DNA from: Candidatus Poribacteria bacterium
GTDB lineage: Bacteria > Poribacteria > WGA-4E > WGA-3G
DNA length: 64,000 nt
Direction: 5' to 3'
Assembly: GCA_965261115.1 (NCBI GenBank)
Contig: OZ253447.1
Location: forward strand, 3,845,287 to 3,909,286
Every line of letters starts with the position of its first letter. The first letter of the stretch is position 1. The translations under genes and the position numbers were made by a program. Below, in pieces: positions 3,964 to 60,062 of this stretch. The notes under the pieces were generated by a model that did no database searches, was not told the DNA's origin, and saw nothing but the letters and a program-made list of their open reading frames with translations.

Positions 3964-4090
3964 TCTTAGCCATTTATTGTATCATATCATTTTATGGAAA
4001 TCCATATCTAATTTCTAATTTAAGCATACGACATGTTCTGATATTTTCTATTTCAGATTCGGCAAAATACATAACAGGAGACGCTGTAAA

Positions 4091-5290
4091 ATGCAAAATA
4101 ACGCCTTCCGCTTTTTGAACCGTCCTAATTTCACCCGCTATATCATTTTGCTCTGTTGCATTATTCAGGTTATACAGTTGACAAGTGCGGGGTGCAGTCA
4201 TACTAAGCCATATTACCATCCCGATGTCCCTGATATTGAAAGACGCGGGCGTGAAACAGAAGGCGTACTCCGTTACCGACTTTTACTACTGGGTGATGGT
4301 GGGGCACCGAAACCGAATGAACCTGTCCTGAAAACCCTCGGCGAATGGGCACGAAAGGACGCTGCGAAAACGAGTATTGTTTTTTTAGGGGACAATATGT
4401 ACCCTGAAGGGATGACAGAACGTCGAAAACATGAAGCAGCGGAACGACTCGTTCCACAACTCTCTGTTGTCAAAGATGCGGGTGTCCATGGACTCTTTAT
4501 CCCCGGAAACCACGATTGGGCAAGTAGTGGTTCGGAAGGACATAGCGCGCTCCTCGCGCAAGAAAAGTTTATCAATGATGCGCTTGCTGGTGAATCGAAT
4601 TTCCTACCGTCTGGAGGTTCACCGGGTCCCGTTGTCCTTGAGCTGCCGAAAGTTAATCCTGTCGTACGACTTATCGTTCTTGATACGCAGTGGTGGCTTC
4701 ACCAATATGAAAAACCAGAGAAATCACCGGAAACAGTTATAGAAGAACTGATAGCACTATTGGATACGGAATTGCCAGTCGTTGTTGTCGGACATCATCC
4801 ATTGCAAAGTTACGGTCCACACGGCGGCTTCTTTGACTGGAAGGCACATTTTTTTGCTGCCAGAGTTATAAAAAAATGGCTCTGGATTCCAACCCCGATC
4901 CTCGGTTCAGCGTATCCGTATGCAAGGGGACACGTTTACAAACTTGACCAAGATATGGGCAGCACGCGTAATAAGAATATGGTGGCGCAGCTGAAGCGAG
5001 CATTTTCTACGCGAAAGTCACCACCACAAGGGACACCGCTTTTGATCTATGTTTCAGGACATGAACATTCGCTACAAGTCCTAAAAGGTGAGATTGCTGA
5101 TTATCTCCTCGTCAGCGGGGCTGCCGCGAGTCGAAAAGTAACAGAAGTGTCGTCTGGCGAAAACACTTTGTTTGCGCATCAGCATACGGGTTTCATGGCG
5201 GTGGATTTTTTGGGCGGTGGGAAAGTCTTGTTGCGCGTAGTTGAACCTGAAGGTAAAAGTGTTGTCTTCCACCGATGGTTGATTTTTTAG
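4091..5290 (+). CDS. calcineurin-like metallophosphoesterase lipoprotein
   Basis: Lipobox LTSAGC. Metallophosphoesterase motifs appear in order: LLLGDGG, FLGDNMY, IPGNHDW, VVGHHP, SGHEHS. Confidence 0.75.
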   Translation: MQNNAFRFLNRPNFTRYIILLCCIIQVIQLTSAGCSHTKPYYHPDVPDIERRGRETEGVLRYRLLLLGDGGAPKPNEPVLKTLGEWARKDAAKTSIVFLGDNMYPEGMTERRKHEAAERLVPQLSVVKDAGVHGLFIPGNHDWASSGSEGHSALLAQEKFINDALAGESNFLPSGGSPGPVVLELPKVNPVVRLIVLDTQWWLHQYEKPEKSPETVIEELIALLDTELPVVVVGHHPLQSYGPHGGFFDWKAHFFAARVIKKWLWIPTPILGSAYPYARGHVYKLDQDMGSTRNKNMVAQLKRAFSTRKSPPQGTPLLIYVSGHEHSLQVLKGEIADYLLVSGAAASRKVTEVSSGENTLFAHQHTGFMAVDFLGGGKVLLRVVEPEGKSVVFHRWLIF

Positions 5291-8182: not shown

Positions 8183-8314
8183 ATAGAAAACTCCTTTGTT
8201 ATGATTGATACATATACTTAATAATACGGAATAAAAACGCTGCCGGTTTCCTAGGTAGTGTTTACATTGTATAAGTTATTGACATTTTGCTTAGGTTTTG
8301 GTAGCCTCTCAGGT

Positions 8315-8695
8315 ATGAAAACTGCACATATAGAAACCACTGAAAACCTACCTATGATGATTTCTGATGCTGCCTGGAAGAGCATCCACCCGTTTCTGAA
8401 AACGTTGCCCAACGTCTATGTCGGTAATCCTGAAGACTGTAGACGATTTCTCTCAGCAGTCGTCTGGATGACGAAAGAAGGTGCGTCTTGGCGCGCTCTT
8501 CCGAAAGTCTACGGGTATTGGAACACAACTTACCGGCGATTCGGTAGATGGTGCGATGCGGGTGTTTTTGAAAAACTCCATGAACATTTCCATGCTGCGG
8601 GTGAAGTCTCTGCGCTCCTGATTGATTCGACGGTTGTGCGTGCTCATACTTCTGCAGCGGGTGCCCCGAAAAAAAAACGGAGGTCAAGTCAATGA
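8315..8695 (+). CDS. IS5-family transposase, N-terminal part (OrfA)
   Basis: MISDAAWKSIHPFLK...CRRFLSAVVWMTKEGASWRALP..YG.W.T.YRRF.RW...GVF is the DUF4096-type N-terminal domain of IS5/IS427 transposases. The ORF ends shortly after the A9 run at 8669-8677. Confidence 0.75.
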   Translation: MKTAHIETTENLPMMISDAAWKSIHPFLKTLPNVYVGNPEDCRRFLSAVVWMTKEGASWRALPKVYGYWNTTYRRFGRWCDAGVFEKLHEHFHAAGEVSALLIDSTVVRAHTSAAGAPKKKRRSSQ

Positions 8696-9113
8696 GGCAC
8701 TCGGTCGGAGTCGTGGCGGTTGGACGACGAAACTCCATGCTGCAGTGAGTGTGGACTTTCTCCCCTTGCGTTTTACTTTGACAGCGGGGCAGCGTCATGA
8801 TGTCACGCAAGCGTCTGCCTTGATAGCGGATTACAAGTCTGCCTATGTTATTGCGGATGCTTCCTATGACTCGAATGCGTTTCGGGCGGAGATAGCTGCC
8901 GGGGGTTCGGAGGCAGTTATCCGTCCGCGTAAGAGTCGTCTTGAAGATATTCCTTATGATAAAGATGTCTATAAACTTCGCAATGTGATAGAACGTTTTT
9001 TTCATCGCTTGAAACAATATCGTCGGGTTGCGACACGGTATGATAAATACGCCGTGCGATACCTCGGGTTCGTCTATTTCGCAGCCATACTTATCACTGC
9101 TAAAAAAATGTAA
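8622..9113 (+). CDS. IS5-family transposase, DDE catalytic part (OrfB)
   Basis: GRSRGGWTTKLHAAV, VIADASYDSN and YKLRNVIERFFHRLKQYRRVATRYDK are the DDE_Tnp_1 hallmarks. Homology begins right after the A9 run. OrfB is in the +1 frame relative to OrfA. Confidence 0.75.
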   Translation: MIRRLCVLILLQRVPRKKNGGQVNEALGRSRGGWTTKLHAAVSVDFLPLRFTLTAGQRHDVTQASALIADYKSAYVIADASYDSNAFRAEIAAGGSEAVIRPRKSRLEDIPYDKDVYKLRNVIERFFHRLKQYRRVATRYDKYAVRYLGFVYFAAILITAKKM

Positions 9114-9139
9114 ACACTACCTAATCTATCCAGCCCTGT

Positions 9140-14752: not shown

Positions 14753-15031
14753 ACCTAAATAAGGGGTGCCGAAGAACGGATCAGTCCGGTGTTAATGACG
14801 GCTACCGCTGCTCGTCTTGCCGGTTTTGTATTACATCGTCGAATTAAGTTGGGTAGCGAGTTTTCAACGTAGAAGTGAAAATCGTAAATTATGTGATACT
14901 TCGTAAACTTTTTTGCAGTGCTGAACGTTTACGTTTTTAGGCAGTCAAATTCACATTGTAAAACTTAGGATTTTGACTTTTTCTAAAATTATGCACCCTT
15001 TTTATTGCGAGATCGCGTCATTAATGGTTAC

Positions 15032-15121
15032 AGGACTTACACAAAATTAGTACGTATACTGAGGCATCACAGGCGAAGTTTGAAACCTTGACAGCAAATG
15101 TAGCGGGTTTGCGTAAGTGCT
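15032..15121. mobile_element. degenerate copy of the 91-bp MITE-like element seen at 44801-44891
   Basis: Ends AGGACTTACACA / TGCGTAAGTGCT are imperfect inverted repeats (10/12). They match the TIRs of the 44.8-kb element. Internal ACGTAT...CAGGCG..GTTT.AAACC blocks align. The copy is 90 bp with no clear TSD. Confidence 0.45.
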
Positions 15122-15212
15122 AACAGGTTAGATAGGGAGTCTGAAAGTGAAAAGGTATCTCATGCCGATCTATGTTGCTCTTTTTTTAGATTGAATTGCT
15201 CCAGTGATTTTT

Positions 15213-35085: not shown

Positions 35086-38055
35086 ATGAAAAACGATGAT
35101 GCTCAGCTTATCCAACGCGTGCTTGATGGTGATGATACGGCGTTCTCCACACTCGTGAAAAAATATCAGCGATCCGTTCACGCGCTGGCGTGGCGGAAGA
35201 TCGGCGATTTCCATATCGCTGAGGATATTACACAAGAGACGTTCCTGAAAGCGTATCAGAGACTCTCTACACTGAAGGAACCACAGTCCTTTGCGAGTTG
35301 GCTTTATGTGATAACCGCACATCACTGCACAGCGTGGCACCGGAAAAATCGGACGTGGACGCAGTCGTTGGAAGACACGAGCAGCGCACACTTAGAAAAA
35401 GCGACGTATTCTGGATATGTCATTGCGGAGAATGAGCGAATGACAACGGAAGCACAACGCGAAGTCGTCAAAAAGTTGCTTGCGAAGTTGCAGGAGAGCG
35501 ATCGAACTGTCATCACGCTCTATTACCTTGGGGGAATGACGTACGAAGAGATCAGCGAGTTTTTAGGTGTGTCGGAGGCGGCGATTCGGAATCGTCTCTA
35601 CCGTGCACGTCGCCGTTTAAAGAAGGAGGAATCCATGATTAGAGAGGCTTTAGAACATTTCCAAATTACGCCAAATCTTACAAAGAATATCATGCGCGAG
35701 GTTTCGCGTCTGAAACCGGTTATTCCATCAGGCAGTAAATCGTTGGTGCCGTGGGCAATCGCCGTTTCCACAATAGTTGTAATATTTTTGATGTTAGGTG
35801 TCGGTAGTCAATATTTATCTCGTTTCCAGAAACCTTACAGTTTCGATGCTGTGTCAGAGATGACGATTGAACTCATTGAAGCCCCCGTCGTGCTAAACCT
35901 TGAATCCAAGCCAGATGTTCAGACGCAACTTGGAAGCACTGCTGTGTCCAGTATAAACGATGGGTTTGGTCAGCGACCTGATGAGATTTTACTTGCTGCT
36001 GCGCAGGTGGATGGAGAGGACGTTCCTATCTCGAAACAACAGTGGGTTCAGACGAACGAGCCTGGAGGCATAGTGGTAATGGCTTTGGCTGCTGTGCCTG
36101 AAGGCAATCTCTACACCGTTGATGGCATGGGTGATGTCTACAAATTATCAAACAATGAAAACGGATGGCAACGCATCTTCAACATTGGTTCACTGAATAC
36201 CCCTTGGGGTGGCAATCCGCCTATTGCGAAGTGGAACAATACCCTTTACCTCGTCCCGTCTAACGAACTTTTTGCTTCAACAGATGATGGCAAGACATGG
36301 AATTCACTATACGCTTGGCACGAAGGCTATAGATATCCGGTTGAATTGGTGCCGACAGATCAAGCATTTTATCTTGCTTTTGATAACGGTATTTTCCGTT
36401 CTGAGGATACCGGCAAGACATGGAAGCTAATGGACAATGGGTTGACGGGGAGAATTGAATCCTTCGTCAAGATCCAAAATACACTGTTTGCTGGAACAAG
36501 AACCGGACTCTACCGCTTAAACACTGACAACTGGCAACGCTTACAATTTCCGGTGTCTGAAGCCGAAACCATTCAATCGGTAGCGGCAACTCAAGAGAAA
36601 CTCTATGTTGCGGCACAGTTAGACTGGAGAAAACTGAGCAGAGATGATAGGCAGCAAATATCCGAAGGACAGAGACGCTCCTGGTGGATATTTCGTTCAA
36701 CTGACAAAGGAGATTCGTGGACAGATATAACCCCCACAGATGCTTGGACAATCCTTGGGTATCCACCACATATCATACTGATCGCTAAAGAAACAGTGCT
36801 CTTGGCAATAGGTATGAGTGACGGTGTCGTGGTTCGCTCAATTGATGGTGGGAATACATGGGTATACGAGGAGACTACCGGTATTTCTCCTACACGCTTC
36901 AGTGTAACGGAGGCTGTAGCATTCAACGAAAGCACTTTTTATGCAGCAGGAAACCGCGGTATTTATCGCTCTACCAATGGTGGCGTATCGTGGCACCGGT
37001 TTAATAGAAAGATGAAGAGTCGGGTTGATAACCTTATCACATTCAGAGAAACTGACAACGGACAGGGTACATCTGCAGCACTTTACGCGAGGGTCAACGG
37101 AGAGTTAGTTAAAACCACCGACTACGGTCATTCTTGGAAAACCGTTCAGGTGAAAATACCGATGAAAGCGCCTCACAGAGAAGATCCACCGCTTATTGAC
37201 GAAATAGTATCGTCTGGTGATGCGCTTTATGCAAAGGGTAAGGTTCCTTTTGAAGAAGTGCGCCTGTATCGCGTCTCTACAAATAGCAATACACTCATAC
37301 GGATTCAAGAAGTACCGGTCTTTTACCCGCTGGGGTTAATGGATAAGGCGTTCATTGAGCAGCTCCAAGGGCGTCTTCATGGTGCGACCCAGTTTTTCAA
37401 GCAGTTGGCACAACCGAATCTCCAGTGGTCAGATGAACTCATACGCGGTGGCTTGCGTGGCGCGTTTGCTGTTAGCGACGATACGTTCTATATGGAATAC
37501 AATTATAAACTCTTCCGATGGAGGCCTGGTGAGGCAGAATGGTACGATACCGAAATGGAAGAAACCTCTGAAATCTCAAGGGATCAGATGATGCGCGGAT
37601 TTGAACTTGCGGTTTCAGGGAGCACTGTCTATGTTGGAAAACGCGATGGACACCTCGTTGTCTCGTTTGATAAAGGAAATAATTGGCTTGATCTCACACC
37701 AAGCCTGCCGTTTCCTGTTAAACATTTCAACGATATTATGTTTGCGGGTTCCACAGTATATGTGGCAACCGACGCAGGCGTTATGACCTCAGATAATGGA
37801 AAAAACTGGCGTGCGATCACCGATGCTACAGGAACGTCTCTCACCGTGGATCGATTGGCAGTTGATGGCACAAACATTTATGGTGTTTCCAAAACGGGTA
37901 TCTATCGGTTGCAAACGGATACCGGTTTGTGGGATCAAATTGCACCTGAGATACCAGAAGCATCGGATTCGGTGACTTCATTTGATATTGATGGAAATGT
38001 GTTGTATGTCGGAACTTATGGCAGCGGCATGTTTTACTTCAATCTTAGCCAATAG
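35086..38055 (+). CDS. ECF sigma factor fused via one TM helix to extracytoplasmic BNR/Asp-box beta-propeller domain(s)
   Basis: Residues 1-183 form a complete sigma70 region 2 plus region 4 (DDTAFSTLVKKYQRSVHALAWRKIGDFHIAEDITQETFLKAY; MTYEEISEFLGVSEAAIRNRLYRARRRLK). The TM helix is LVPWAIAVSTIVVIFLMLGVG. At least 8 S-x-D-x-G-x-(T/S)-W Asp-box repeats follow (STDDGKTW, SEDTGKTW, STDKGDSW, SIDGGNTW, STNGGVSW, TTDYGHSW, SFDKGNNW, SDNGKNW). Confidence 0.8.
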   Translation: MKNDDAQLIQRVLDGDDTAFSTLVKKYQRSVHALAWRKIGDFHIAEDITQETFLKAYQRLSTLKEPQSFASWLYVITAHHCTAWHRKNRTWTQSLEDTSSAHLEKATYSGYVIAENERMTTEAQREVVKKLLAKLQESDRTVITLYYLGGMTYEEISEFLGVSEAAIRNRLYRARRRLKKEESMIREALEHFQITPNLTKNIMREVSRLKPVIPSGSKSLVPWAIAVSTIVVIFLMLGVGSQYLSRFQKPYSFDAVSEMTIELIEAPVVLNLESKPDVQTQLGSTAVSSINDGFGQRPDEILLAAAQVDGEDVPISKQQWVQTNEPGGIVVMALAAVPEGNLYTVDGMGDVYKLSNNENGWQRIFNIGSLNTPWGGNPPIAKWNNTLYLVPSNELFASTDDGKTWNSLYAWHEGYRYPVELVPTDQAFYLAFDNGIFRSEDTGKTWKLMDNGLTGRIESFVKIQNTLFAGTRTGLYRLNTDNWQRLQFPVSEAETIQSVAATQEKLYVAAQLDWRKLSRDDRQQISEGQRRSWWIFRSTDKGDSWTDITPTDAWTILGYPPHIILIAKETVLLAIGMSDGVVVRSIDGGNTWVYEETTGISPTRFSVTEAVAFNESTFYAAGNRGIYRSTNGGVSWHRFNRKMKSRVDNLITFRETDNGQGTSAALYARVNGELVKTTDYGHSWKTVQVKIPMKAPHREDPPLIDEIVSSGDALYAKGKVPFEEVRLYRVSTNSNTLIRIQEVPVFYPLGLMDKAFIEQLQGRLHGATQFFKQLAQPNLQWSDELIRGGLRGAFAVSDDTFYMEYNYKLFRWRPGEAEWYDTEMEETSEISRDQMMRGFELAVSGSTVYVGKRDGHLVVSFDKGNNWLDLTPSLPFPVKHFNDIMFAGSTVYVATDAGVMTSDNGKNWRAITDATGTSLTVDRLAVDGTNIYGVSKTGIYRLQTDTGLWDQIAPEIPEASDSVTSFDIDGNVLYVGTYGSGMFYFNLSQ
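35623..35637 (+). promoter_or_regulatory. internal Shine-Dalgarno AAGGAGG + in-frame ATG (codon 184) at the sigma/tether junction
   Basis: AAGGAGG (35623-29), 5 nt, then ATG (35635-37), in frame. The same arrangement occurs at 41520-41534 and 38481-38495. Confidence 0.5.
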
Positions 38056-38291
38056 TAAAACAAATTGTAGGGAGGGGCTATTTGCGCCTTGCGAATGAAG
38101 TGCCTCCCTATTTTCCATTCATCCAATCACCCAATTAACTTCCCGACTCGATATTGAAGTTCGCATTCACTATCATCTTCAGATGATGTTCAAGTTTTCG
38201 CGCGGACGGAATCCACCGAATTGCCTCAAGAATAAGTTTCTCCTATAAACGGACTTCTTTCGGGGTCATTCAATTTTCAAATTGTCTGAAT

Positions 38292-38325
38292 CGCGGAGGA
38301 CGCGGAGGGCGCGGAGGACGCGGAT
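38292..38325. repeat. 9-bp tandem repeat (GCGGAGGAC x ~3.7)
   Basis: CGCGGAGGACGCGGAGGGCGCGGAGGACGCGGA was read directly. Intergenic. Confidence 0.85.
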
Positions 38326-38430
38326 TTTCGTGTTTAGGGATGCCAAAATCATAAGGGAATTTAGCTGTTTTCCAGAGAATTGAATGGCCCTGTACTTCTT
38401 TTCGGACGTATGCACTTTTGGTTGGGTTTA

Positions 38431-38439
38431 TGGTATAAT
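38431..38439 (+). promoter_or_regulatory. extended -10 promoter element (TGGTATAAT) for the sigma-less paralog
   Basis: TGnTATAAT match, 54 nt upstream of ATG 38493. Confidence 0.55.
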
Positions 38440-38480
38440 TCCATTAACAGATGAGATGCGTCTTTACCGTGTATGTCAGC

Positions 38481-38495
38481 AAGGAGGAACCCATG
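38481..38495 (+). promoter_or_regulatory. SD AAGGAGG + ATG start of the sigma-less paralog
   Basis: AAGGAGG, then AACCC, then ATG. This is identical to the internal site at 41520-41534. Confidence 0.7.
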
Positions 38496-40841
38496 ATTCG
38501 GAATGCTTTAGATAATTTTCAAATCACACCGAATCCCGGCAAGAACGTGATATATGAGATGCCGCGCGCCAAGTTTGCTGCTTCCTCTGATGGTAAACCG
38601 TTTGTGCGGTGGGTAATCACTGCTTTAGTGATGGTCGTGCTGCTGATCCAGACACATCGGGTTTTAGCCAACCCAGAGGACTACACCCGATGGGGTTTGC
38701 CTGAAGGTGCAAAAGCGCGGATCGGGAAAGGCACCTTCACTGATATGCAGTTGTCCAGCGATGGTACTCGCTTGGCGATTGCGAGTTCCGCGGGTGTATG
38801 GCTTTATGATGTTAGTACTGGTGATGAAATTGCGCTTATCACAGAGAATACGGATTTAATCGGATTGGTGGCATTTTCTCCTGACGGTGCAACACTTGCT
38901 ACTGCTGGTGGGGACAACGAATGTCGTATCTGGGATGTTGAAAGTCAGAAACTGCTACTAACATTCAAGCTACCTGATTATTGGATCCATACATTGACAT
39001 TCTTGGATGATGGAAGAACCCTTGTCGGTGAGGGATCGATTGACAAAGCTTCACACGATCTGATTGGTGGAGATCCTTGGAGATGGGATGTCCCTAAGGT
39101 CTGGATGTGGGATGTTTCCTCTGGAAAGCAGTTAGACACTTTCACCACCAAGTTACCGAGATTTAATCCGCTTAAAGATGCACGGACCAGTGTTAGGGTG
39201 AAGGCATTTGCGGATGGTACGCGTGTTATCTTTGCTTTTGAGAACAGAGACGGAACGATTAGTGTTAAAGATGGACGTACGAATCGCGAGATAGTTACAC
39301 TTCCAAAACCTGAGAGACAGGTAAGAGCGTTCAGTTTTACGCCAGATGGCAGAAGGCTTGCGGTTGCGACTTCCAGAAACGTACATCTCTGGGATCTTGT
39401 TGATACAGGAGAACAGTTGGCAACGTTTCCAAAAAGGGTCGCGGATTTCGAGGGGTATCCAGCGATACTTGCATTCTCAAAAGATGGAAAAACCCTTGCT
39501 GTTGCCGGGTTAGATGACATTGAGATATGGAATATGGATACATATTCGCAGGTTGCTACACTTGAAAATAAGAGTGGTGGTTTGTGGGAATTTGTGTTAT
39601 CGGCGGATGGTGCAACCGTTGTAACTATGAATCACCACGGCACAGTGGATTTATGGTCGGCACAGACCGGCAAACATGAACGTACCTTGACGACGGGATG
39701 GACCAGTAGGTTTTCCACGTTGGTGTTCTCGCACGATGGGAAAACGATTGCGAGCAGCACGGGTAGCAAAATCCATCTGTGGGATACAAACACTTGCACC
39801 GAAAGATTGCGGATGCAACTTCCCGGACGCGTTGAAGGTGTAAACAAACACATTGAACCGAATTTGCGAGCTGCTGTGCCCATGGTACGTGGGAGCGAAA
39901 TCGCCAGTTTAGCATTTTCTGAATATAACACGCCTCTTGCCGCTTCTGCATATAGTACCACCCTCGCCGTTTGTACCGTTTCCGACAAAGTTGAAATATG
40001 GGATGCCGCTACAGGAAAATATAATACTGATTACACGCTCCCGGGCAGACTTCGTAGGGTGCCGCATGGCCCATTGACTGATGATTTAGGTACTGTGCCA
40101 GTGCCGCGAACCCCGGCGATATACCATATCTACGCAACATCATTTGAGAGCACAGGGCATACCGTACATGCAGCCGCTTTCTCACCAAACAGTGAAAAAC
40201 TGGCTATTGAAATCCAGAATGGTGTGATGGAGATATGGGACATTCTTACCCAAAGACGCTTATGCACGCTCCCAGGTCAAGTCCCAAACTGGAGTGCGGC
40301 GTTCACGTTTACTTTCGCATTTACACAGGATGGTGAGGTGCTTGCAATCGGCAAAGGAACGGAGGTCCACTTGTCGAATACCGATACTGGCGAGACATTT
40401 GCTACATTCAGTGTTGCTAAGGAGAAACTGGATTTGATAGATAAATTACAAAAATTTCTCGGCTTGAAGCGTTTTGATGTGCCAGTGGGTGCTGTGGCAT
40501 TGGGACGAGCTGGGGAACCTCTCATCGTTGCTGCGAGTGCAGGTAAAACAATCTATTTATGGGATGTCGCGACCCGGAAATCTGTAATGCTTGAAGGGCA
40601 CACAAGTGAAGTCTGTAAATTAGCATTCGCGCCCAACGCGACTTTTCTGGCAAGTGGAGATATAGATGGCACAATTCACCTGTGGTTGCTACCTGCCGGA
40701 CACAAACTTGCCACCTTCAAGCCATACGTGAGCCCCGTTAAAGAATTGGTGTTTGCGCCTGATGGGAAAACCCTCGCAAGCACAAACCTGTATTCCCGCT
40801 TTGCTGGAACGATACTCCTATGGGACGTTCCACCTAAATAA
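38493..40841 (+). CDS. single-pass membrane WD40 beta-propeller protein (sigma-less paralog of the fusion proteins)
   Basis: It starts MIRNALDNFQITPN..., homologous to the tether MIREALEHFQITPNL of both fusions. The TM helix is FVRWVITALVMVVLLI. WD40-like blades follow (VAFSPDGATLATAGGDNECRIWDV; LAFAPNATFLASGDIDGTIHLW). Confidence 0.8.
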   Translation: MIRNALDNFQITPNPGKNVIYEMPRAKFAASSDGKPFVRWVITALVMVVLLIQTHRVLANPEDYTRWGLPEGAKARIGKGTFTDMQLSSDGTRLAIASSAGVWLYDVSTGDEIALITENTDLIGLVAFSPDGATLATAGGDNECRIWDVESQKLLLTFKLPDYWIHTLTFLDDGRTLVGEGSIDKASHDLIGGDPWRWDVPKVWMWDVSSGKQLDTFTTKLPRFNPLKDARTSVRVKAFADGTRVIFAFENRDGTISVKDGRTNREIVTLPKPERQVRAFSFTPDGRRLAVATSRNVHLWDLVDTGEQLATFPKRVADFEGYPAILAFSKDGKTLAVAGLDDIEIWNMDTYSQVATLENKSGGLWEFVLSADGATVVTMNHHGTVDLWSAQTGKHERTLTTGWTSRFSTLVFSHDGKTIASSTGSKIHLWDTNTCTERLRMQLPGRVEGVNKHIEPNLRAAVPMVRGSEIASLAFSEYNTPLAASAYSTTLAVCTVSDKVEIWDAATGKYNTDYTLPGRLRRVPHGPLTDDLGTVPVPRTPAIYHIYATSFESTGHTVHAAAFSPNSEKLAIEIQNGVMEIWDILTQRRLCTLPGQVPNWSAAFTFTFAFTQDGEVLAIGKGTEVHLSNTDTGETFATFSVAKEKLDLIDKLQKFLGLKRFDVPVGAVALGRAGEPLIVAASAGKTIYLWDVATRKSVMLEGHTSEVCKLAFAPNATFLASGDIDGTIHLWLLPAGHKLATFKPYVSPVKELVFAPDGKTLASTNLYSRFAGTILLWDVPPK

Positions 40842-40929
40842 GACCTTCACCTATAGACAATCATTATTTCGGTTCCTGAAACTTACTATTCAAGAAATTG
40901 CAGAATTCTGCAACCGTTTTCGCCCTAAG

Positions 40930-40938
40930 TCGCGTCAC
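40930..40938 (+). promoter_or_regulatory. conserved TCGCGTCAC box (second copy)
   Basis: As at 35030-35038. Here it is preceded by TGCAAC about 18 nt upstream, a loose ECF-like -35 AAC. Confidence 0.3.
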
Positions 40939-40982
40939 AAGGTATTAATGTGAAATACTAAAAACTCCTCTGGAGATATTCG

Positions 40983-43931
40983 ATGAGAAATGACGATACT
41001 CGACTGGTTCAATGTGTCCTTGAAGGCGATGATGCCGCTTTCGCTGAACTGGTGAAAAAGTACCAGCAGCCGGTTCACGCGCTTGTGTGGCGGAAGGTTG
41101 GAGATTTCCATGTCGCTGAGGAGATTACACAAGACACTTTCCTGAAAGCATACCAGAAACTGACGACACTCAAGGAGCCGCAGCGTTTTGCGAGTTGGCT
41201 TTATGTGATAGCCACAAACCGTTGTAAGGCATGGCTGCGTAGGAAGCGTTTATGGATGCAGTCGCTGGATGCCACAGGTGGCATGCAGTTGGAAAAGGCT
41301 ACATATTCTGGGTATGTCATTTCGGAGAACGAACGCGTAACAGCAGAATCACAGCGCGAAGTCGTCAAAAAGCTGCTCGCGAAGTTACAGGAGAGTGAGC
41401 GGACTGTCATGACACTCCACTATTTCGGGGAGATGACGTGTGAAGAGATTAGCAAGTTTTTGGGTGTATCGGTGGGTGCGATTAAGAGTCGCCTCAGCCG
41501 TGCGCGCCACCGCTTAAAGAAGGAGGAACCCATGATTCGCGAGGCTTTAGAACATTTCCAAATCACACCGAATCTTACAGAGAATATCATGCGCGAGATT
41601 TCGCGTCTGAAACCGGTTACCCCGTCAGGCGGTAAACCGCTCGTGCCGTGGGCAATCGGTGTTTCCACAATAGCAGTCGTCCTTTTGATGTTAGGTATCG
41701 GAAACCATCAATACCTGTCGCGTTTTCAAAAACCGTATAGTTTCGACGCACCATCAGAGATGGCAGTTGAACTCATTGAAGCACCGATTGTGCTGAACCT
41801 TGAAGCCAAACCGGATATTCGGACGCAGTTTGGAAGTGTCAATACACCGAGCGAGGGTGCTATTTCCAACCAGCAACCTAACGACGTTTCGGCATCGGTT
41901 GCAGACGCAGAATCAGATGAGACATCTGAAAACCACGCACATTGGAAGTTGCCCAAAGCGGCGAAAGCGCGCTTCGGAAAAGGTGGGATTACCACAATCC
42001 AGTTTTCGCCAGATGGCACCCTACTTGCAGTCGGTAGCAATATCGGGGTATGGCTGTATGATGTGGAAACAGGTGAAGAGAAATCTCTGTTTGGCAGCGG
42101 CGTGTGTGAAGCCCTCAGCTTTTCACCTGATGGCCGTTTCCTTACCGTTTCTTCTCGGGAGACGCTCATCCAATTGTGGGAGATTGCTACCGAGCGCGAA
42201 GTGCCGCTTATCGACTTGTACGGGGCTGCTTCCGTATTGCGATTCTCTTCGGATGGGAAAACGCTTATCGGTTTGAGTAGTTCCGGTGCAATTACCCGAT
42301 TGAATATTGAGAACGGGAAAGGGAAAACAAAACACCTCAAAACTGGATTATTCGGGATCGGTCTCTTTAGTTCGGAGGATTTTCAGGGTGTCTACGCGAT
42401 GACAAGCGATAAAATCGCGATTGGAAAAGCGGACGGGACGATCCAGTTATGGGACGTAGCAACCCGTAAAAAGTTATCAACGCTCAGAGGACACATAGAT
42501 TTGCCGCTGCAACCGTTGAATAAACCTGTGCATCGCATATTTAAAAATAATTGGGTCTTAGCAGTGGCGTTTTCGCCGGATGGCACGCGTCTCGCCAGTG
42601 GCAGCACAGATACGACAGTCCGATTGTGGGATACCACTGGTGACACGGATTGGATGACGCTGCAGAAACATACTGGACCGACAAATGTGCTGGCGTTTTC
42701 ACCCGATGGAAAAATGCTTGCCAGTGGCAGTACCGATAAAACAGTGCAATTGTGGGACACCACCACTGGCGACCCCCTCGCGACGCTCACTGGACATATC
42801 AACGGTATTACTGCGTTAGCATTTTCACCCGATGGTCGGACACTCGTCAGCGGGAGTACGGATGGCACAATCCGATTCTGGCAGACAGCGACTGGGGCTC
42901 CAGTGGATACCCTTATCACTGGGCACACACACTCCATAAAAGCGGCGACCTTCTTTGAGGATAGTTCCACACTTGTCAGCGCGGCGTTTAACGGTGAAAT
43001 TACCTTTTGGAATGTGGAAACATCGCAAAAGTCTACTGTCCAAAATAGTAGACATCGGGATTGGTATTCAGCAGTGGCGTTTTCGCCAGATGGCACGAAA
43101 CTCGTCAGTGCAGCGGCGGATGGTACTATAGCTTTCGGTAAGTTTCCTACTACTACAAAGCCAGATAATCTAATTCGGTTGACGGATGTATCGACTGGAG
43201 ACGAACTTGCGAGATTGCCGCGAGGCACCGAAAAACTCATCTTTTCTCCTGACGATAGAACTAAAACTGTAGCGATTACTAATCTTGACATTCGTTTGTG
43301 GAATACGGAAACAGGCGATGAATTGATAATTCCTGTTAATGATGACCTGAAACCCGGCTTTCGCGGCAATCTACCAATGATTTTGGCAGCGGCGTTTTCA
43401 CCGGATGGTAGATGGCTTGTGAGTGGCACTACAGAAGGCGACATCCGAATGTGGGACGTTGCGACCGGTGAAGTTTTGACTGTCTTTGCAGAACCGACAG
43501 AACAAGAGAATCTGGGGCATATTTCGGCAGTGGCGTTTTCACCGGACCGCGCCTTGCTCGCTGCTGGCACACACACGCAACTCCATTTATGGGATGTGCG
43601 TACCGGTCATAAAATTTTTTCGGTTAGTACTGTGCATAAACGCGGTTGGGGTATATACCATGATTATTCAAGACCGTTGGTGTTTTCGCCGGATGGCACA
43701 ATTCTTATCAATGGGCATAACAGCGGTACAATCCAGTTATGGGATGTTGAGACAGGAGATAGAATTGCTGTGCTTGATGGACATACACAGGAAGTGGAGA
43801 CGTTGAAATTTTCACCTGATGGGGAAACACTGGTTAGTACGGCGCAGGATGGCACAATTTTCTTGTGGGATTGGGATGAGGCTATCACCGGTTCGGCCAA
43901 CACCGACGAATATAAGGGGTTAAAGAAATAA
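40983..43931 (+). CDS. ECF sigma factor fused via one TM helix to extracytoplasmic WD40 beta-propellers
   Basis: Residues 1-183 are a complete ECF sigma, highly similar to 35086's. The TM helix is LVPWAIGVSTIAVVLLMLGIG. More than 12 WD40 repeats follow (AVAFSPDGTRLASGSTDTTVRLWD, VLAFSPDGKMLASGSTDKTVQLWD, ALAFSPDGRTLVSGSTDGTIRFWQ ...). Confidence 0.85.
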   Translation: MRNDDTRLVQCVLEGDDAAFAELVKKYQQPVHALVWRKVGDFHVAEEITQDTFLKAYQKLTTLKEPQRFASWLYVIATNRCKAWLRRKRLWMQSLDATGGMQLEKATYSGYVISENERVTAESQREVVKKLLAKLQESERTVMTLHYFGEMTCEEISKFLGVSVGAIKSRLSRARHRLKKEEPMIREALEHFQITPNLTENIMREISRLKPVTPSGGKPLVPWAIGVSTIAVVLLMLGIGNHQYLSRFQKPYSFDAPSEMAVELIEAPIVLNLEAKPDIRTQFGSVNTPSEGAISNQQPNDVSASVADAESDETSENHAHWKLPKAAKARFGKGGITTIQFSPDGTLLAVGSNIGVWLYDVETGEEKSLFGSGVCEALSFSPDGRFLTVSSRETLIQLWEIATEREVPLIDLYGAASVLRFSSDGKTLIGLSSSGAITRLNIENGKGKTKHLKTGLFGIGLFSSEDFQGVYAMTSDKIAIGKADGTIQLWDVATRKKLSTLRGHIDLPLQPLNKPVHRIFKNNWVLAVAFSPDGTRLASGSTDTTVRLWDTTGDTDWMTLQKHTGPTNVLAFSPDGKMLASGSTDKTVQLWDTTTGDPLATLTGHINGITALAFSPDGRTLVSGSTDGTIRFWQTATGAPVDTLITGHTHSIKAATFFEDSSTLVSAAFNGEITFWNVETSQKSTVQNSRHRDWYSAVAFSPDGTKLVSAAADGTIAFGKFPTTTKPDNLIRLTDVSTGDELARLPRGTEKLIFSPDDRTKTVAITNLDIRLWNTETGDELIIPVNDDLKPGFRGNLPMILAAAFSPDGRWLVSGTTEGDIRMWDVATGEVLTVFAEPTEQENLGHISAVAFSPDRALLAAGTHTQLHLWDVRTGHKIFSVSTVHKRGWGIYHDYSRPLVFSPDGTILINGHNSGTIQLWDVETGDRIAVLDGHTQEVETLKFSPDGETLVSTAQDGTIFLWDWDEAITGSANTDEYKGLKK
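41520..41534 (+). promoter_or_regulatory. internal SD AAGGAGG + in-frame ATG (codon 184)
   Basis: AAGGAGG (41520-26), AACCC, then ATG (41532-34). The offset from the gene start is 549 nt, exactly as in the 35086 gene. Confidence 0.5.
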
Positions 43932-43932
43932 A

Positions 43933-44754
43933 ATGAAACGATCATTTCTCTATGCCTTATTCATCGTTCTAACGCTTATCACGGGCGGATATGTAACCGC
44001 AGGTCTTGATAAAGGACTTGTCGTTTATTTCACGTTCGACAACGTCCTGGGTAAGCGGATTCTTGATGAATCTGGTAACGGACTTGATGCTGAAATTGTC
44101 AAAGAGACTCAATTTGTCAAGGGTAAATATGGGAACGCTGTCCATATTACTAATGATACTGAAGATTGTGTGAATGTACCTGCCGCCGATGAACTGGAAA
44201 TCAGTGAAGAGATCACAATGATGGCATGGGTATATCACGAGAATTGGAAGGGGAGCTCTTCACAGTGGTTTGATAAAGGGTGTTATAGTGCGAGATCCAA
44301 TAGTATATACGGTATGGGAGTTTTCGATGAAAATGATGATCCTGATCTCGGATTCCCTTCAGGCGTTGGGATTATTTTAGGGACGCGAGAATTTCATGTG
44401 CGAATCGTAATAAAGAAGGAAATGAGGAATGGAACGTGGCATCATATTGTCGGCGTATGTGAGGATCTCAACGTGAGAATGTATCTTGATGGTGAAAACA
44501 TTCATGAATCTAATCAAAGAGCACCTTTTAATTTTAATGGCATAAACGAGGAAGATTTGCGGATCGGATGTGCCAAAGGTAAGCCTGCGTATGCGTTTGC
44601 GGGAGGTTCTATTGACGAAGTCGCGATATGGAATCGTGCGCTTAGTGAAACCGAAATCAGGGCTGTGATGCGGGGTACCTTGTTCGCGGTTTCACCGAAG
44701 GATAAAATCGCTACAACATGGGGAAATATTAAGCGGAAAGCACTTCAACCGTAG
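43933..44754 (+). CDS. secreted LamG/concanavalin-A-like lectin domain protein
   Basis: Signal peptide. LVVYFTFDN...DESGNG.DA......FV.GKYGNA and the C-terminal SIDEVAIWNRALSETEI are typical of Laminin_G_3 domains. The ATG lies 1 nt after the stop of 40983..43931. Confidence 0.72.
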   Translation: MKRSFLYALFIVLTLITGGYVTAGLDKGLVVYFTFDNVLGKRILDESGNGLDAEIVKETQFVKGKYGNAVHITNDTEDCVNVPAADELEISEEITMMAWVYHENWKGSSSQWFDKGCYSARSNSIYGMGVFDENDDPDLGFPSGVGIILGTREFHVRIVIKKEMRNGTWHHIVGVCEDLNVRMYLDGENIHESNQRAPFNFNGINEEDLRIGCAKGKPAYAFAGGSIDEVAIWNRALSETEIRAVMRGTLFAVSPKDKIATTWGNIKRKALQP

Positions 44755-44793
44755 CGAAACCGATAGTCTAAGGTTCTAAACGTACTCACCGAT

Positions 44794-44898
44794 ATTACGT
44801 AGGACTTACGCATTTTTCCATGATAACGAACGTATGACGCACTGCAGGCGGGGTTTAAAACCCCGCCTGCGAGGGAGGCTGCGTGAGTCCTATTACGT
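44794..44898. mobile_element. 91-bp MITE-like element (44801-44891) with 7-bp target-site duplication
   Basis: TIRs AGGACTTACGCA (44801-12) and TGCGTGAGTCCT (44880-91) match at 11/12. They are flanked by a perfect direct repeat ATTACGT (44794-800 and 44892-98). Confidence 0.65.
44844..44870. terminator. GC-rich hairpin inside the MITE, between convergent genes
   Basis: GCAGGCGGGG-TTTAAAA-CCCCGCCTGC. The 10-bp stem is extendable by TTT/AAA. It sits between the LamG gene (+) and the 1256-aa gene (-). Confidence 0.6.
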
Positions 44899-47800
44899 TA
44901 AAGTTCCGCACTGACGGTCATCTCCAGACGGTGTTCGGGTTTTCGCTCTTTCGTTGAGAGTAGACGGTAATTGAGTCGCAGTAGTAGATCGGTGAATTTC
45001 CGTAATCTGTAGTCTGCTATCGTCCGGATTTCGTGGCTGATGCCTTCGTAGAACGTATATTGCGCGAAGGGTATGCCGCCACTGCTTTTGCCGTAGCCGA
45101 GTTTGTAGTTGAAATCAATGCGTCCCTTACCGATGAGACTGTAGGTGACGCGGCTCTCAAACGAAAAGGTGCGCGTTTTGGCTTCGGGTTCCTCGTCAAG
45201 TTGCTCCTCGTCGGTTGTCCGTTTATAGCCACTGATACCGCTCCATCGTAGGGTCTTACTCAACTGGTATCGGATATTTAGTTCAGTTATCTGCTCAAAC
45301 TGACGCAAGTCTGAGATAGGTGTCGGAGAAGGCTCTCTCATTTCCTTGGTAGGATCGGTTTCTTGTGCGAGGTCTTCAAAATCGAATTGGCTATATTTTT
45401 CGGTTTCCCGACGTTGTTCCCTGTTCGCGCCAACAGAGAGACGTTGGGTCGGATTCATAGAGAAGCCAACATCCCATGTGTTGTGGTGTCTGTGGCGTTC
45501 TTGGTTATTAATCCGCTTGTTGAGCGTCTCCCCTGCCCGGAAGTTAAGTTCAAAACTGAACGCCGTTGAGGGGACGAATTCGAGTCGATGGTGTTGGTTC
45601 ACTCGCCCGAAAACCGTATCTGAACCTTGTAGATTTTGGAGTAGATATAGCGAAACAGCATCTTCTACCTCCTGTTCCTCAGTCAGCCAGAGTCGTGTTT
45701 GACCTCTGAGCGCGTTCAGAAACCATTCCATCCGAGAAGGACGCACGCTTTGCTGTGATGCTGGCGGTGTTGGCCGTAAACTATCACCTTTCAACATCGC
45801 CTCTCGTTGCAGCTGTTGTTGCCGCGCCCGGTTGCGCCGTGCGAAAAACTGGCGGGGTTGAAAACGGAGGCGAAAATCCGCATCTACCGCCGTTGTTGGT
45901 TTATCACCGACGTGTTGGTGGATTTTGATGTAAGTGCCTTCTTCGGCATCCTCTACGTAGTGTAGATCGTCCAACTTCACGTAATATCCGTCCCCGGGTT
46001 GGAGCCGGACACCGGTATGTGGATGGATGTTGGTATAGACTTCGCGGCGTTGGCTTGTCAATTTTTTATCTAATTCGTAGGTGAGTTCTATGTCAATTGC
46101 CCGGCTTAGGGGTGTCAACTGAATATTAATATCTGCGAGTTGCGTCGTTGTATTCGCACCGAGATCGGTGTGTGCTTTGAGCGTCCGACGGGCGAGGTTT
46201 GCGGTCAGATTCATACCGCCGCTGAGAAAGGATTTCTGTTGTGAAAAGATGCCGACTTTCCATGTGCGTCCGGTCGTATTCCGTTGCCAATCCGATAAAC
46301 CGATCGGTTCGTCATCAACAGTGAGCAACGGCTCTTTGGCGTAAGCCTCCTCAAGTTCGTAGCTGGTATTCAGAGATGCCCAACTAAAATCAACGAGATT
46401 GATACGTCCAATTGCGCGGTTCCGCTTTCGGTTGAGCGTGGCATTACGCGCCTCGTTTGATTCCACCCTGCCCAATGTTCCCAAAATTCTGAACGGTCCG
46501 AGCGGATAAGCTAAGTTGCCTTCCTGCCGTAACTTCTGCTGCGATTGTGTCCGTGTTGAATCCTCATCCTCCACACGCGAACTACTCCGATAGTCATCCC
46601 AACGGAGATTCGGTAATTTCTGTAGGGGCGAGGTCACCTCGCCCCTACGGCCTTTAGACAGGTTTTGTTCCGATGCAGGGGTTGCTTTCTCTTGCCCACT
46701 GATGCGCGTGTTTCCGCGTCTGGTGGTAGCGGTTATACCTCCACTGCCTGACCGGCGATTGAAGTTCACACCCCAATTGAAATTATTGCGGATCGTTGCG
46801 TTTGTCGTTGGTGATGCTTCTGTTCCGTCCGCCAACCCCCCTTTATCCCCCCTTATCAGGGGGGTGGGTGGTTCTTTCTCTTCGCTTCTACCGATGCCAG
46901 CGTCAACCGCCAACCAATCTGTTGGAATCAGTTGGATGTCAAAGTTCGCAGTTCTCTCATCTCGTGCGGTTTGTGAAGGCGAGGTAACCTCGCCCCTACC
47001 AAACAGGAACGCGTCATCAAAACCCTCTTTGGTGTATTGCGTTTCATAACGGGAGCGATTCCGATTACTACTTGACGCACCGACAGGGACAAAGTCGGCG
47101 TCCATCGCTCGGATGTCGAGATTTGTGTTCAATTTAGGTCGCAGTTTATCTGTCCATGTCGCAAAGTCCCAATCCGCGTAACCGGTCAGTTTCCACGCCT
47201 GACTCACCTCTTTACGGTCTATGGTGGAATAGGTGTTCTTATCAAGATTGCTGTAGGCGAGTTCACCTTCGATCCACGCTTTTTCAGTAATGTTCACGCG
47301 GCTTTCTAACCCCCATACAGTATGTTTCTGGGGTGCTGTGAGCAGCGACCCATCTTCTTCGGGGTCAAGGATATTTTGACGGAGTGCCTCGATATCGGTC
47401 TCTTCAAGTATGATTAAAGCCTGTTCCGGTTCCTTCAGGTCTGCCTCAACGGCATAGGAAGCACCGAGTGTTATCCATTCTCCGTAGGGGCGAGGTAACC
47501 TCGCCCCTACACTGAGTCCATAGAGATTTTGTTGATATGCGCGATCTTCTGGGATGTATTCAAAGTCGATCCGAATTGTGTCGTTGCTTGTGATGAGGTG
47601 TTTGCTGTTGAACTCGACGATTGGGTCTCCATATTCTCGGATGATGTAATCGTTGTTTTCACCGCGCCGCATCCTTTCACCATTCAGCCAGACGATTTCA
47701 CTGCCTGCCTTTACGATGACGTATTGCCCATCGACGGTGAGCCGATATTCGCTCCGTCCTTCTTCGCCGCGAAGGACTAAGCTGGTAGACTGCCCTTTCG

Positions 47801-48668
47801 GAATGGCACTTGGAATAAGGTGGAAGCTCCCCCACTTGAAATCGCCTTCGACTTGTATGCCTTCCAAGGCACGTGGAAAAAAGATGAATTCAGAGGTGCC
47901 AAGCGACCCCTCAAAGTCGCCTAAGGTGCCTTTCATGTTTGGGTGTGTGATACGAATCAATTTCTGATCGATGTCTTGAATATTTTCGGTTGTTCCTTCG
48001 GGTTGAATAGGTAGATCTTGGTCGGATAGTAGTGCGAGGACGCTGATGTTTTCGGAGACTTTACCTTCTACATTGACACGGAGTTCCTGATTCTGTGAGA
48101 TGCTACGTCCGCTGCCGAGCGAAATACCGAATGTTTGGCTACCGGACACTTCGAGTTGTGATGTCCCGTCACCTGTAGAGGAGGTGCTTCCAAGTTCACC
48201 GAAAGGCTGTCCAGTCACCTTTTCAGATTCGTCAGTTTTGGGGAGGAGACCATCAGTAGATTCTGTTGATGGAGTTTGCGTGCCATAAAGGTCGCGTTTG
48301 TAGACCTCTTTAATTGCGAAAGGCAGCGTGCGGTAGGTTATCTTTAACTTGTAAGGGGTGGTCGTAGCATCGGGTGCTTCTATAGTGATTTTTCCTGAAT
48401 AGAAATCGATTTGATAGTCTATACTTCGCACGAGGGTTTTTCCATCCACTTCGATTAACTGTTCAGTGTCAGGGAGGATTGGTGGGTACTTCACCGTGAA
48501 TTCCCGCTCACCCGTTTTTAGTTCAATGGATTCGGTTTTCTGGAGGACGGAAAAGGTCGGGAGTTCGAGGGCTTTAGTTTTGTCGTCAGCGGATTCTTGT
48601 GCCGTGCTTCCGGAACGTGGTAGCAGGCACAAACAGAAGGAGACAAGGAACAAAAGTGGGGTACGCAT
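44898..48668 (-). CDS. very large secreted protein, probable outer-membrane beta-barrel
   Basis: 1256-codon uninterrupted ORF with signal peptide MRTPLLFLVSFCLCLLP..STAQ. It has long stretches of alternating hydrophobic/polar residues rich in Y/R/N/T/G. The C-terminal strand is RLEMTVSAEL. No named family was recognised. Confidence 0.55.
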   Translation of the reverse strand: MRTPLLFLVSFCLCLLPRSGSTAQESADDKTKALELPTFSVLQKTESIELKTGEREFTVKYPPILPDTEQLIEVDGKTLVRSIDYQIDFYSGKITIEAPDATTTPYKLKITYRTLPFAIKEVYKRDLYGTQTPSTESTDGLLPKTDESEKVTGQPFGELGSTSSTGDGTSQLEVSGSQTFGISLGSGRSISQNQELRVNVEGKVSENISVLALLSDQDLPIQPEGTTENIQDIDQKLIRITHPNMKGTLGDFEGSLGTSEFIFFPRALEGIQVEGDFKWGSFHLIPSAIPKGQSTSLVLRGEEGRSEYRLTVDGQYVIVKAGSEIVWLNGERMRRGENNDYIIREYGDPIVEFNSKHLITSNDTIRIDFEYIPEDRAYQQNLYGLSVGARLPRPYGEWITLGASYAVEADLKEPEQALIILEETDIEALRQNILDPEEDGSLLTAPQKHTVWGLESRVNITEKAWIEGELAYSNLDKNTYSTIDRKEVSQAWKLTGYADWDFATWTDKLRPKLNTNLDIRAMDADFVPVGASSSNRNRSRYETQYTKEGFDDAFLFGRGEVTSPSQTARDERTANFDIQLIPTDWLAVDAGIGRSEEKEPPTPLIRGDKGGLADGTEASPTTNATIRNNFNWGVNFNRRSGSGGITATTRRGNTRISGQEKATPASEQNLSKGRRGEVTSPLQKLPNLRWDDYRSSSRVEDEDSTRTQSQQKLRQEGNLAYPLGPFRILGTLGRVESNEARNATLNRKRNRAIGRINLVDFSWASLNTSYELEEAYAKEPLLTVDDEPIGLSDWQRNTTGRTWKVGIFSQQKSFLSGGMNLTANLARRTLKAHTDLGANTTTQLADINIQLTPLSRAIDIELTYELDKKLTSQRREVYTNIHPHTGVRLQPGDGYYVKLDDLHYVEDAEEGTYIKIHQHVGDKPTTAVDADFRLRFQPRQFFARRNRARQQQLQREAMLKGDSLRPTPPASQQSVRPSRMEWFLNALRGQTRLWLTEEQEVEDAVSLYLLQNLQGSDTVFGRVNQHHRLEFVPSTAFSFELNFRAGETLNKRINNQERHRHHNTWDVGFSMNPTQRLSVGANREQRRETEKYSQFDFEDLAQETDPTKEMREPSPTPISDLRQFEQITELNIRYQLSKTLRWSGISGYKRTTDEEQLDEEPEAKTRTFSFESRVTYSLIGKGRIDFNYKLGYGKSSGGIPFAQYTFYEGISHEIRTIADYRLRKFTDLLLRLNYRLLSTKERKPEHRLEMTVSAEL
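46622..46648. repeat. REP-like palindrome P2 inside CDS
   Basis: GTAGGGGCGAGGT-C-ACCTCGCCCCTAC (13-1-13, perfect). It is translated as RRGEVTSPL on the minus strand. Confidence 0.9.
46847..46864. repeat. C/G-tract hairpin inside CDS
   Basis: CCCCCCT-TATC-AGGGGGG, preceded by a second CCCCCCTTTAT. It is translated within ...PLIRGDKGGLADG. Confidence 0.8.
46973..46999. repeat. REP-like palindrome P3 (left arm decayed) inside CDS
   Basis: GTGAAGGCGAGGT-A-ACCTCGCCCCTAC. The left arm matches at 10/13. It is translated as GRGEVTSPS, in the same frame as P2. Confidence 0.85.
47484..47510. repeat. REP-like palindrome P4 inside CDS
   Basis: GTAGGGGCGAGGT-A-ACCTCGCCCCTAC, perfect. It is translated in a different frame, as VGARLPRPY. 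Confidence 0.9.
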
Positions 48669-54678: not shown

Positions 54679-54690
54679 ATTTGTATAGTT

Positions 54691-54836
54691 GTTAGTTAAC
54701 AGTTATAAGTTTTTAGTTAAGAGGGTTCTGATTATTCAAGTTTCTTTGGTAACCGTCAGTACTTCAATTGAGTAGAGACTTCTTGGAATAACGATCAAAC
54801 ATCAAAAACCAAACTTATAACTTATAACTTATAACT
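54691..54836. repeat. inverted AGTTATA/ACTTATA heptamer arrays in the intergenic region
   Basis: Left: GTTAGTTAACAGTTATAAGTT (54691-54714). Right: (ACTTATA)x3.5 at 54812-54836. Confidence 0.8.
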
Positions 54837-54850
54837 ATTCCCGTTTGAAC

Positions 54851-59936: not shown

Positions 59937-60045
59937 AAGTTATAAGTTATAGGTTGTAAGTTATAAACTACGATGCTGTGAATACCACAACAAAACTACC
60001 TGCCACAAGAAGTTAACTGTTAACTTATAACCTATAACCGTTAAC
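59937..60045. repeat. inverted AGTTATA/ACTTATA heptamer arrays (second intergenic region)
   Basis: Left: AGTTATA-AGTTATA-GGTTGTA-AGTTATA (59937-59968). Right: AGTTAACTGTTAACTTATAACCTATAACCGTTAAC (60011-60045). Confidence 0.8.
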
Positions 60046-60062
60046 TCTCTATGGTTTTTCTC

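Follow-up and report, generated by a model that had tools for sequence, protein, structure and literature searches.

A probable 93-bp MITE with ISPlag1-type IS701 ends between two convergent genes of Candidatus Poribacteria

The window, which is the whole 64,000-nucleotide stretch of Candidatus Poribacteria DNA analysed here, contains two convergent genes whose spacer raises the question of what sits between them and where its ends come from. The upstream gene (43933-44754, plus strand) encodes a 273-aa LamG-domain protein (Pfam PF13385, E = 9e-21) whose orthologues are named LamG proteins of Candidatus Poribacteria; the best hits of the window's genes likewise carry that name, which identifies the host as a poribacterium. 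The downstream gene (44898-48668, minus strand) encodes a 1256-aa protein whose N-terminus resembles a signal peptide and for which Pfam gave no match. The spacer between them is 143 bp, and a sequence-only reading had placed in it a 91-bp MITE-like element with 12-bp inverted ends and a 7-bp target duplication, recently inserted and acting as a terminator. The letters are as it described them: ATTACGT at 44794-44800, AGGACTTACGCA at 44801-44812, a 67-bp interior, TGCGTGAGTCCT at 44880-44891, and ATTACGT at 44892-44898. The inverted 12-mers match at 11/12 positions, the flanking 7-mers are identical, the minus-strand stop codon of the 1256-aa gene (44898-44900) shares one base with the right 7-mer, and the hairpin GCAGGCGGGGTTTAAAACCCCGCCTGC lies at 44844-44870. 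Occurrences of the 12-mer with at most one mismatch number four in the window against 0.28 expected, and none of 100 shuffles reached four. These four form two inverted pairs of similar spacing, 91 bp and 90 bp. The evidence presented below indicates that the spacer very probably holds a non-autonomous MITE of 93 bp with the ends of ISPlag1-group IS701 elements.

Family statistics were used to set the borders of the unit. The pattern AGGACTYACRCA-N55-80-TGYGTRAGTSCT was scanned in one genome per prokaryotic species and returned at least 120 loci (L001-L120), each an element of ~90 bp with the ends of the window element. The ends are near-invariant over these at least 120 loci; the interiors are unrelated between lineages and conserved within them. 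The base before the 12-mer (before AGGACT) is a pyrimidine (T/C) in 117/120 listed members, and the base after AGTCCT is a purine (A/G) in 118/120. A direct repeat flanks the listed 120 members at positions -6..-2 / +2..+6 with 76-86% identity compared to a background of ~30%. The resulting 5-bp duplication is perfect in 74/120 listed members and carries one mismatch in a further 17, and the targets are AT-rich. Based on the terminal-base and direct-repeat statistics in the 120 listed members, the unit is 44800-44892, non-coding, with 13-bp ends and a TTACG duplication. The left terminal inverted repeat is TAGGACTTACGCA (44800-44812, plus strand), the right one is TGCGTGAGTCCTA (44880-44892, plus strand) with one mismatch to the consensus TGCGTAAGTCCTR, and the target copies are TTACG at 44795-44799 on the left and TTACG at 44893-44897 on the right. 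The stop codon of the 1256-aa gene directly follows the right copy.

The element described earlier is thus real, but its length is 93 bp rather than 91, and its inverted ends extend over 13 bp, matching at 12/13 positions, rather than 12. The proposed 7-bp target duplication is replaced by one of 5 bp, as positions -7/+1 and -1/+7 are unenriched across the family (0.23 and 0.17). The two outer matching bases are a coincidence because they have no family-wide enrichment; they arise where the terminal A of the element meets a flanking A and its terminal T meets a flanking T. A reading with IS630/Tc1-like duplication of TA (TA|GGACT...AGTCC|TA) was rejected, since the outer bases vary (T/C before AGGACT, A/G after AGTCCT) and the duplication lies beyond them. 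The terminal base pairs among the 120 listed members are T/A (34), C/A (32), C/G (26) and T/G (24), so that the terminal Y and R bases are not complementary within elements, a point that counts against the MITE explanation. Element lengths cluster at ~84-85, 90-94 and 103-104 bp, a spacing near one helical turn; since the lineages are not independent, this is no more than a hint.

The literature was searched for the end sequence, and the ISPlag1 paper (PMC2464740) was the sole match. ISPlag1 of Planktothrix is described there as a 1306-bp element with a 337-aa transposase of the IS701 group and inverted repeats that begin CAGGACTTACGCA (PMC2464740). The element was recovered from a Planktothrix plasmid (L126, 1231-2535) with the ends CAGGACTTACGCA...TGCGTAAGTCCTG; its gene is annotated as 'IS701-like element ISPlag1 family transposase' and the product scores 408 bits on NCBIfam NF049921. 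The protein collection contains more than 7258 homologues of this transposase. The best 120 of these are all 64-100% identical, the few named organisms among them are cyanobacterial or Legionellales relatives, and a Poribacteria copy was not seen among these best 120. Ten full-length IS copies with located ends were compared, consisting of two copies of ISPlag1 and eight copies from three homologues whose transposases are 65-77% identical. The eight non-ISPlag1 copies are 1150, 1394 or 1531 bp long and have unrelated subterminal sequences. The ends CAGGACTTACGCA...TGCGTAAGTCCTG are found in 10/10 copies and equal the consensus YAGGACTTACGCA ... TGCGTAAGTCCTR. Both flanks could be read for eight IS copies, and five of these have perfect 5-bp duplications (ACTAA, TTTGG, AATCA, TAATA and TTTTT), which lie directly outside the 13-mer in the same register as in the window element. 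An autonomous IS with AGGACTTACGCA-type ends, which the sequence-only reading had suggested looking for, therefore exists in the ISPlag1 group, with 5-bp duplications. The left end of the window element is identical to these IS ends except for its first base (T for C). All ten full-length IS copies have C...G as terminal bases, unlike the MITEs.

The window element lacks coding capacity: its 93 bp contain no ORF of 80 aa or more and no gene for a DDE transposase of the NF049921 / PF13546+PF01609 type. It is a derivative of the ISPlag1 group and not a member IS because it has no gene, and it is a MITE by definition because it combines the ends and duplication of the IS copies with the lack of a gene. 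With the ISPlag1 transposase as query, tblastn found nothing in the window, in the MITE or in the Poribacteria loci compared, in agreement with the earlier statement that no IS of the window has matching ends. Full-length IS were also sought inside the 120 listed loci, using ends paired at 0.9-2.2 kb and the ISPlag1 C1 motif, and only false pairs with ordinary genes between them were obtained. The same reading had held that the inverted repeats of an IS5-family element in the window differ from the MITE ends. The small IS meant is probably an ~870-bp unit at 8252-9123 with 24-nt inverted repeats TAGGTAGTGTTTACATTGTATAAG at its borders; the ends of this unit are unrelated to those of the MITE.

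The listed matches to the family pattern are mostly from Cyanobacteria (Nostoc, Trichodesmium, Okeania, Microseira and others). Other hosts listed are Burkholderiales (Undibacterium), Chloroflexi, a Daviesbacteria MAG (CPR), Planctomyces (Planctomycetes) and Desulfobacteraceae, and six Candidatus Poribacteria MAGs are among the listed matches (L019, L020, L036, L037, L086 and L115). From phylum to phylum the ends stay conserved and the interior is wholly replaced, and for this reason the ends, not the hairpin, define the mobile unit. The same observation bears on a different mechanism, in which the element is of the REP/REPIN type and is moved by a Y1 (RAYT) single-strand transposase, with the hairpin as its active part and the outer repeats incidental. 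The internal hairpin does occur outside intact TIR-bounded units (L140, L141). A metagenome scan for the hairpin core covered the JGI collection, which has few Poribacteria, and returned five contigs; a few of the contexts found on metagenome contigs are decayed or TIR-less. Other REP-like palindromes exist in the genome. REP elements, however, carry GTAG or CGTC tags and make no target duplication, whereas the MITE hairpin is untagged and its unit is flanked by a 5-bp duplication. The true GTAG-tagged palindromes at other places in the window do not resemble the MITE. Together with the 13-bp ends common to DDE-type IS copies, these differences make movement by a Y1 transposase highly improbable.

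A second, decayed copy of the family that the sequence-only reading had missed is located at 15031-15122 in the window, in an 816-bp spacer between two divergent genes. The copy is 92 bp with the ends CAGGACTTACACA and TGCGTAAGTGCTA, and its 12-mer-bounded span is 15032-15121 (90 bp). Its interior aligns with that of the 44800-44892 copy (CAGGCGAAGTTTGAAACC vs CAGGCGGGGTTTAAAACC) and its hairpin is eroded (fold z = -0.07 and -2.7). GGTTA is found immediately to the left, and the GGTTA on the right is 3 nt further out than expected. Another Poribacteria MAG (L115) has a copy that is 91% identical to the window's at an unrelated site with the duplication ATTAA, and a related copy occurs at yet another site in a further Poribacteria MAG (L019). 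Contigs assembled from four public runs, three unlabelled and one a coral metatranscriptome, were mapped on the region. Summed contig depth rose from ~100-800 in the flanks to 6,000-87,000 exactly over 44781-44891, a ~100-500-fold increase in the four runs, and dozens of contigs diverge into different flanks at 44800 or 44801. The divergence of the contigs and the depth independently confirm the left border and a high copy number in these communities. Other copies, for which the earlier reading had proposed a search, are therefore present in the window, in L115 and L019, and as metagenome repeats. Its claim of a non-autonomous transposable element is borne out by the inverted ends, the 5-bp duplication, the dispersed copies and the presence/absence of the element among relatives.

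The junction of the LamG and 1256-aa genes was compared across seven orthologous junctions, that of the window included. The MITE is found in the window and in L036, the Poribacteria MAG SB0101; 5/7 junctions are without it (L121, L123, L124, L138 and L139), and its presence varies among relatives as expected of mobile DNA. SB0101 shares synteny with the window (84-90% nucleotide identity) and has the MITE at the identical site, with ~8 differences in 93 bp and the flanks TTACG/TTACA, the right target copy having one change. It has the consensus A at the position of the right-end mismatch in the window copy. The closest relative (L121, 93-96% identity) has an unrelated 84-bp heptamer-repeat hairpin (L121 3364-3447) in place of window positions 44787-44899. 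The stop codons overlap in L123 and L138, leaving no spacer; the L124 junction (3382-4212) has an extra 276-aa gene; and the L139 junction (2355-2625) has a different ~265-bp element with GTAGGTTGGGTTGAACGG inverted ends. The search for empty-site alleles proposed earlier thus succeeded in finding junctions without the element, but none of these has a clean empty site with a single intact TTACG, and other sequence or no spacer is found there instead.

These comparisons do not fit the recent insertion that had been deduced from the intact duplication. The insertion is not recent because the identical site is occupied in SB0101, a different species-level MAG, where the flanks are 84-90% identical and the two copies have accumulated the ~8 differences; the intactness of a 5-bp duplication is a poor guide to age. 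The absence of the element from the closest relative (L121) and its presence in the more distant L036 call for one of two histories: either the element was later lost or replaced in the L121 lineage, or lineages recombined. In the neighbouring gene, other small indels have a mosaic pattern among relatives like that of the MITE. Around the element the identity of the window and SB0101 is ~96%, which is not decisive for recent horizontal exchange because the adjacent gene ends are equally conserved in element-free relatives. The identical position in SB0101 and the well conserved surrounding spacer of these two genomes could also be read as signs of an intergenic structure that is old and vertically conserved, such as a terminator or a regulatory hairpin, and that is immobile and flanked by chance repeats. 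This is barely credible, given the 5/7 orthologous junctions without the element and the 100-500-fold rise in metagenome depth. The ends of the unit are identical to those of transposase-encoding IS with a matching 5-bp duplication, and the second window copy and the copies at unrelated loci of other genomes already contradict an immobile structure.

The hairpin at 44844-44870 consists of the GC-rich arms GCAGGCGGGGTTT-A-AAACCCCGCCTGC with a predicted stem of 12-13 pairs. The predicted fold of the whole unit is -53 kcal/mol (z = -8.2) on one strand and -47 kcal/mol on the other. One hairpin pair is variable (G-C, A-T or G-T) and its pairing is kept (L019, L036, L115 and L140-L144). The core CAGGCGRGGTTTNAAACCYCGCCTG recurs in other subfamily copies, a small sample in which the search pattern itself limits the visible variation, so that the kept pairing is not taken as covariation. 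No Rfam family matched, either at the gathering threshold or with E up to 1. The proposal that the element supplies a terminator to the convergent genes was not upheld. A T-run after the stem is absent on both strands (plus-strand sequence GAGGGAGGCTG, minus-strand sequence AGTGCGTCATA), and a consensus terminator scan found no site within the element. The one RNA run among the four consists of assembled contigs that break off at the repeat. A hairpin is missing from three of the seven orthologous junctions, namely L123 and L138 without a spacer and L124 with an unstructured one (z = 0.02), so a hairpin is not required at this junction.

A wider form of this proposal is that the MITE was co-opted and its hairpin now serves the LamG and 1256-aa genes as a bidirectional terminator or as a stabiliser of mRNA 3'-ends. 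The very stable predicted fold of the hairpin and the whole element (-53/-47 kcal/mol, z about -8) is consistent with such a role, and the 143-bp spacer has no other strong hairpin. SB0101 retains the fold in its orthologous copy (-48.5 kcal/mol), and the closest MITE-free relative (L121) has a different hairpin element at the junction. MITEs are also described in general terms as folding in mRNAs and altering their stability (PMC3733652). The missing T-run and the empty terminator scan speak against it, the overlapping stops in L123 and L138 and the unstructured spacer of L124 indicate that a hairpin is dispensable at the junction, and co-option is accordingly considered unlikely. The hairpin could conceivably protect RNA 3'-ends or cause pausing, and an effect of the insertion on transcription of its neighbours is unproven.

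Three unrelated small elements are found at this one junction: the ISPlag1-type MITE, the 84-bp heptamer-repeat hairpin and the ~265-bp element with GTAGGTTGGGTTGAACGG ends. This site looks like a hot spot of small insertions, those in L139, L121 and L124 all being different. It may repeatedly recruit hairpin-bearing selfish elements, in which case the MITE hairpin would be kept to insulate or stabilise the converging transcripts without a U-tract, and the 13-bp end would act in many phyla as a portable site for transposases, with unrelated hairpin cargo. This combination is rated as distinctly improbable.

Other repeats and genes of the window were recorded. GTAG-tagged REP-like palindromes GTAGGGGCGAGGT-N-ACCTCGCCCCTAC are located at 46621-46650, 46973-46999 and 47482-47511, inside the 1256-aa ORF on the minus strand, and leave its frame open. 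They are read in two frames as GRRGEVTSPLQ, GRGEVTSPSQ and VGARLPRPYG. The 46621 palindrome is absent from L121 and L036, the 46973 palindrome is present in L121 and not in L036, and a palindrome CCCCCCTTATCAGGGGGG near 46868 is shared by the window and L036 and is not found in L121. The palindromes in this ORF resemble polymorphic REP insertions that have kept a coding gene in frame. At 54685-54838 and 59938-60046, tandem heptamers (AGTTATA / TAACTTA type) are arranged in inverted arrays that make up long imperfect hairpins, and the 84-bp insert of L121 belongs to this type. Three large tandem genes (989, 796 and 982 aa) at 35086-43931 are rich in WD40 repeats, and orthologues of the third (982 aa) have N-terminal ECF-sigma (Sigma70_r2/r4) domains fused to WD40 propellers.

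The closest known system is ISPlag1 of Planktothrix agardhii (PMC2464740), which has the same 13-bp ends, (C/T)AGGACTTACGCA, and whose autonomous relatives make a 5-bp duplication in the matching register. The 197-bp remnants of ISPlag1 are likewise short, bounded by inverted repeats and free of transposase (Christiansen et al. 2008, PMC2464740). The window element differs from ISPlag1 in being 93 bp long without a transposase gene, in having no trace of the ISPlag1 subterminal sequence AGCACGCTATATATAG, in its Poribacteria-specific hairpin interior, in its host phylum and in its first base, T rather than C. Among bacterial MITEs, Nezha of Anabaena/Nostoc, Correia/NEMIS of Neisseria, RUP and ERIC (reviewed in PMC3184786) resemble the window MITE: they are small, non-coding, intergenic elements with inverted repeats, target duplications and stable hairpins, they vary in presence between relatives, and their ends are common to an IS (PMC3184786). 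Nezha differs in being 130-170 bp long and linked to ISNpu3. For Correia elements, effects as promoters, as terminators and through RNase III have been documented, and none is shown for the window MITE. The window MITE is an ordinary kind of element from a known IS family.

A further group of the IS701 family can be likened to the window element. The ISAba11 group, the subject of work by Rieck et al. in 2012, is reported to have a typical 5-bp direct repeat. Its terminal inverted repeats reportedly have extensive identity within the family, with distant homologues in Cyanobacteria and Proteobacteria. The 5-bp repeat and the family-wide inverted repeats are the features in common.

These data suggest a route by which the element could have reached its present site. 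Judging from its ends, we infer that the unit would have been mobilised in trans by an ISPlag1-group transposase in the window's genome. A DDE transposase of ~337 aa (NF049921), encoded elsewhere, would bind both 13-bp ends YAGGACTTACGCA and excise or copy the unit. Insertion at an AT-rich target cut with a 5-bp stagger, followed by repair, would give the TTACG duplication, and the GC-rich hairpin interior would be carried as cargo. The window copy would have landed between convergent genes, where insertions may do little harm. This would have taken place before the window and SB0101 lineages split, or the element may have been exchanged between them by recombination. The window MITE would now be a fixed and slowly decaying passenger.

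For annotation, one intergenic repeat is explained and its borders are corrected. The family can be searched for by the rule YAGGACTTACGCA, ~65-80 bp, TGCGTAAGTCCTR, with a 5-bp duplication on both flanks. A single 13-bp end spans phyla in IS copies and in at least 120 short elements, a breadth for which no description was found in the literature searched. This cross-phylum reach is the only mildly notable aspect of the element, and the 13-bp end may serve as a marker for the horizontal spread of the ISPlag1 group.
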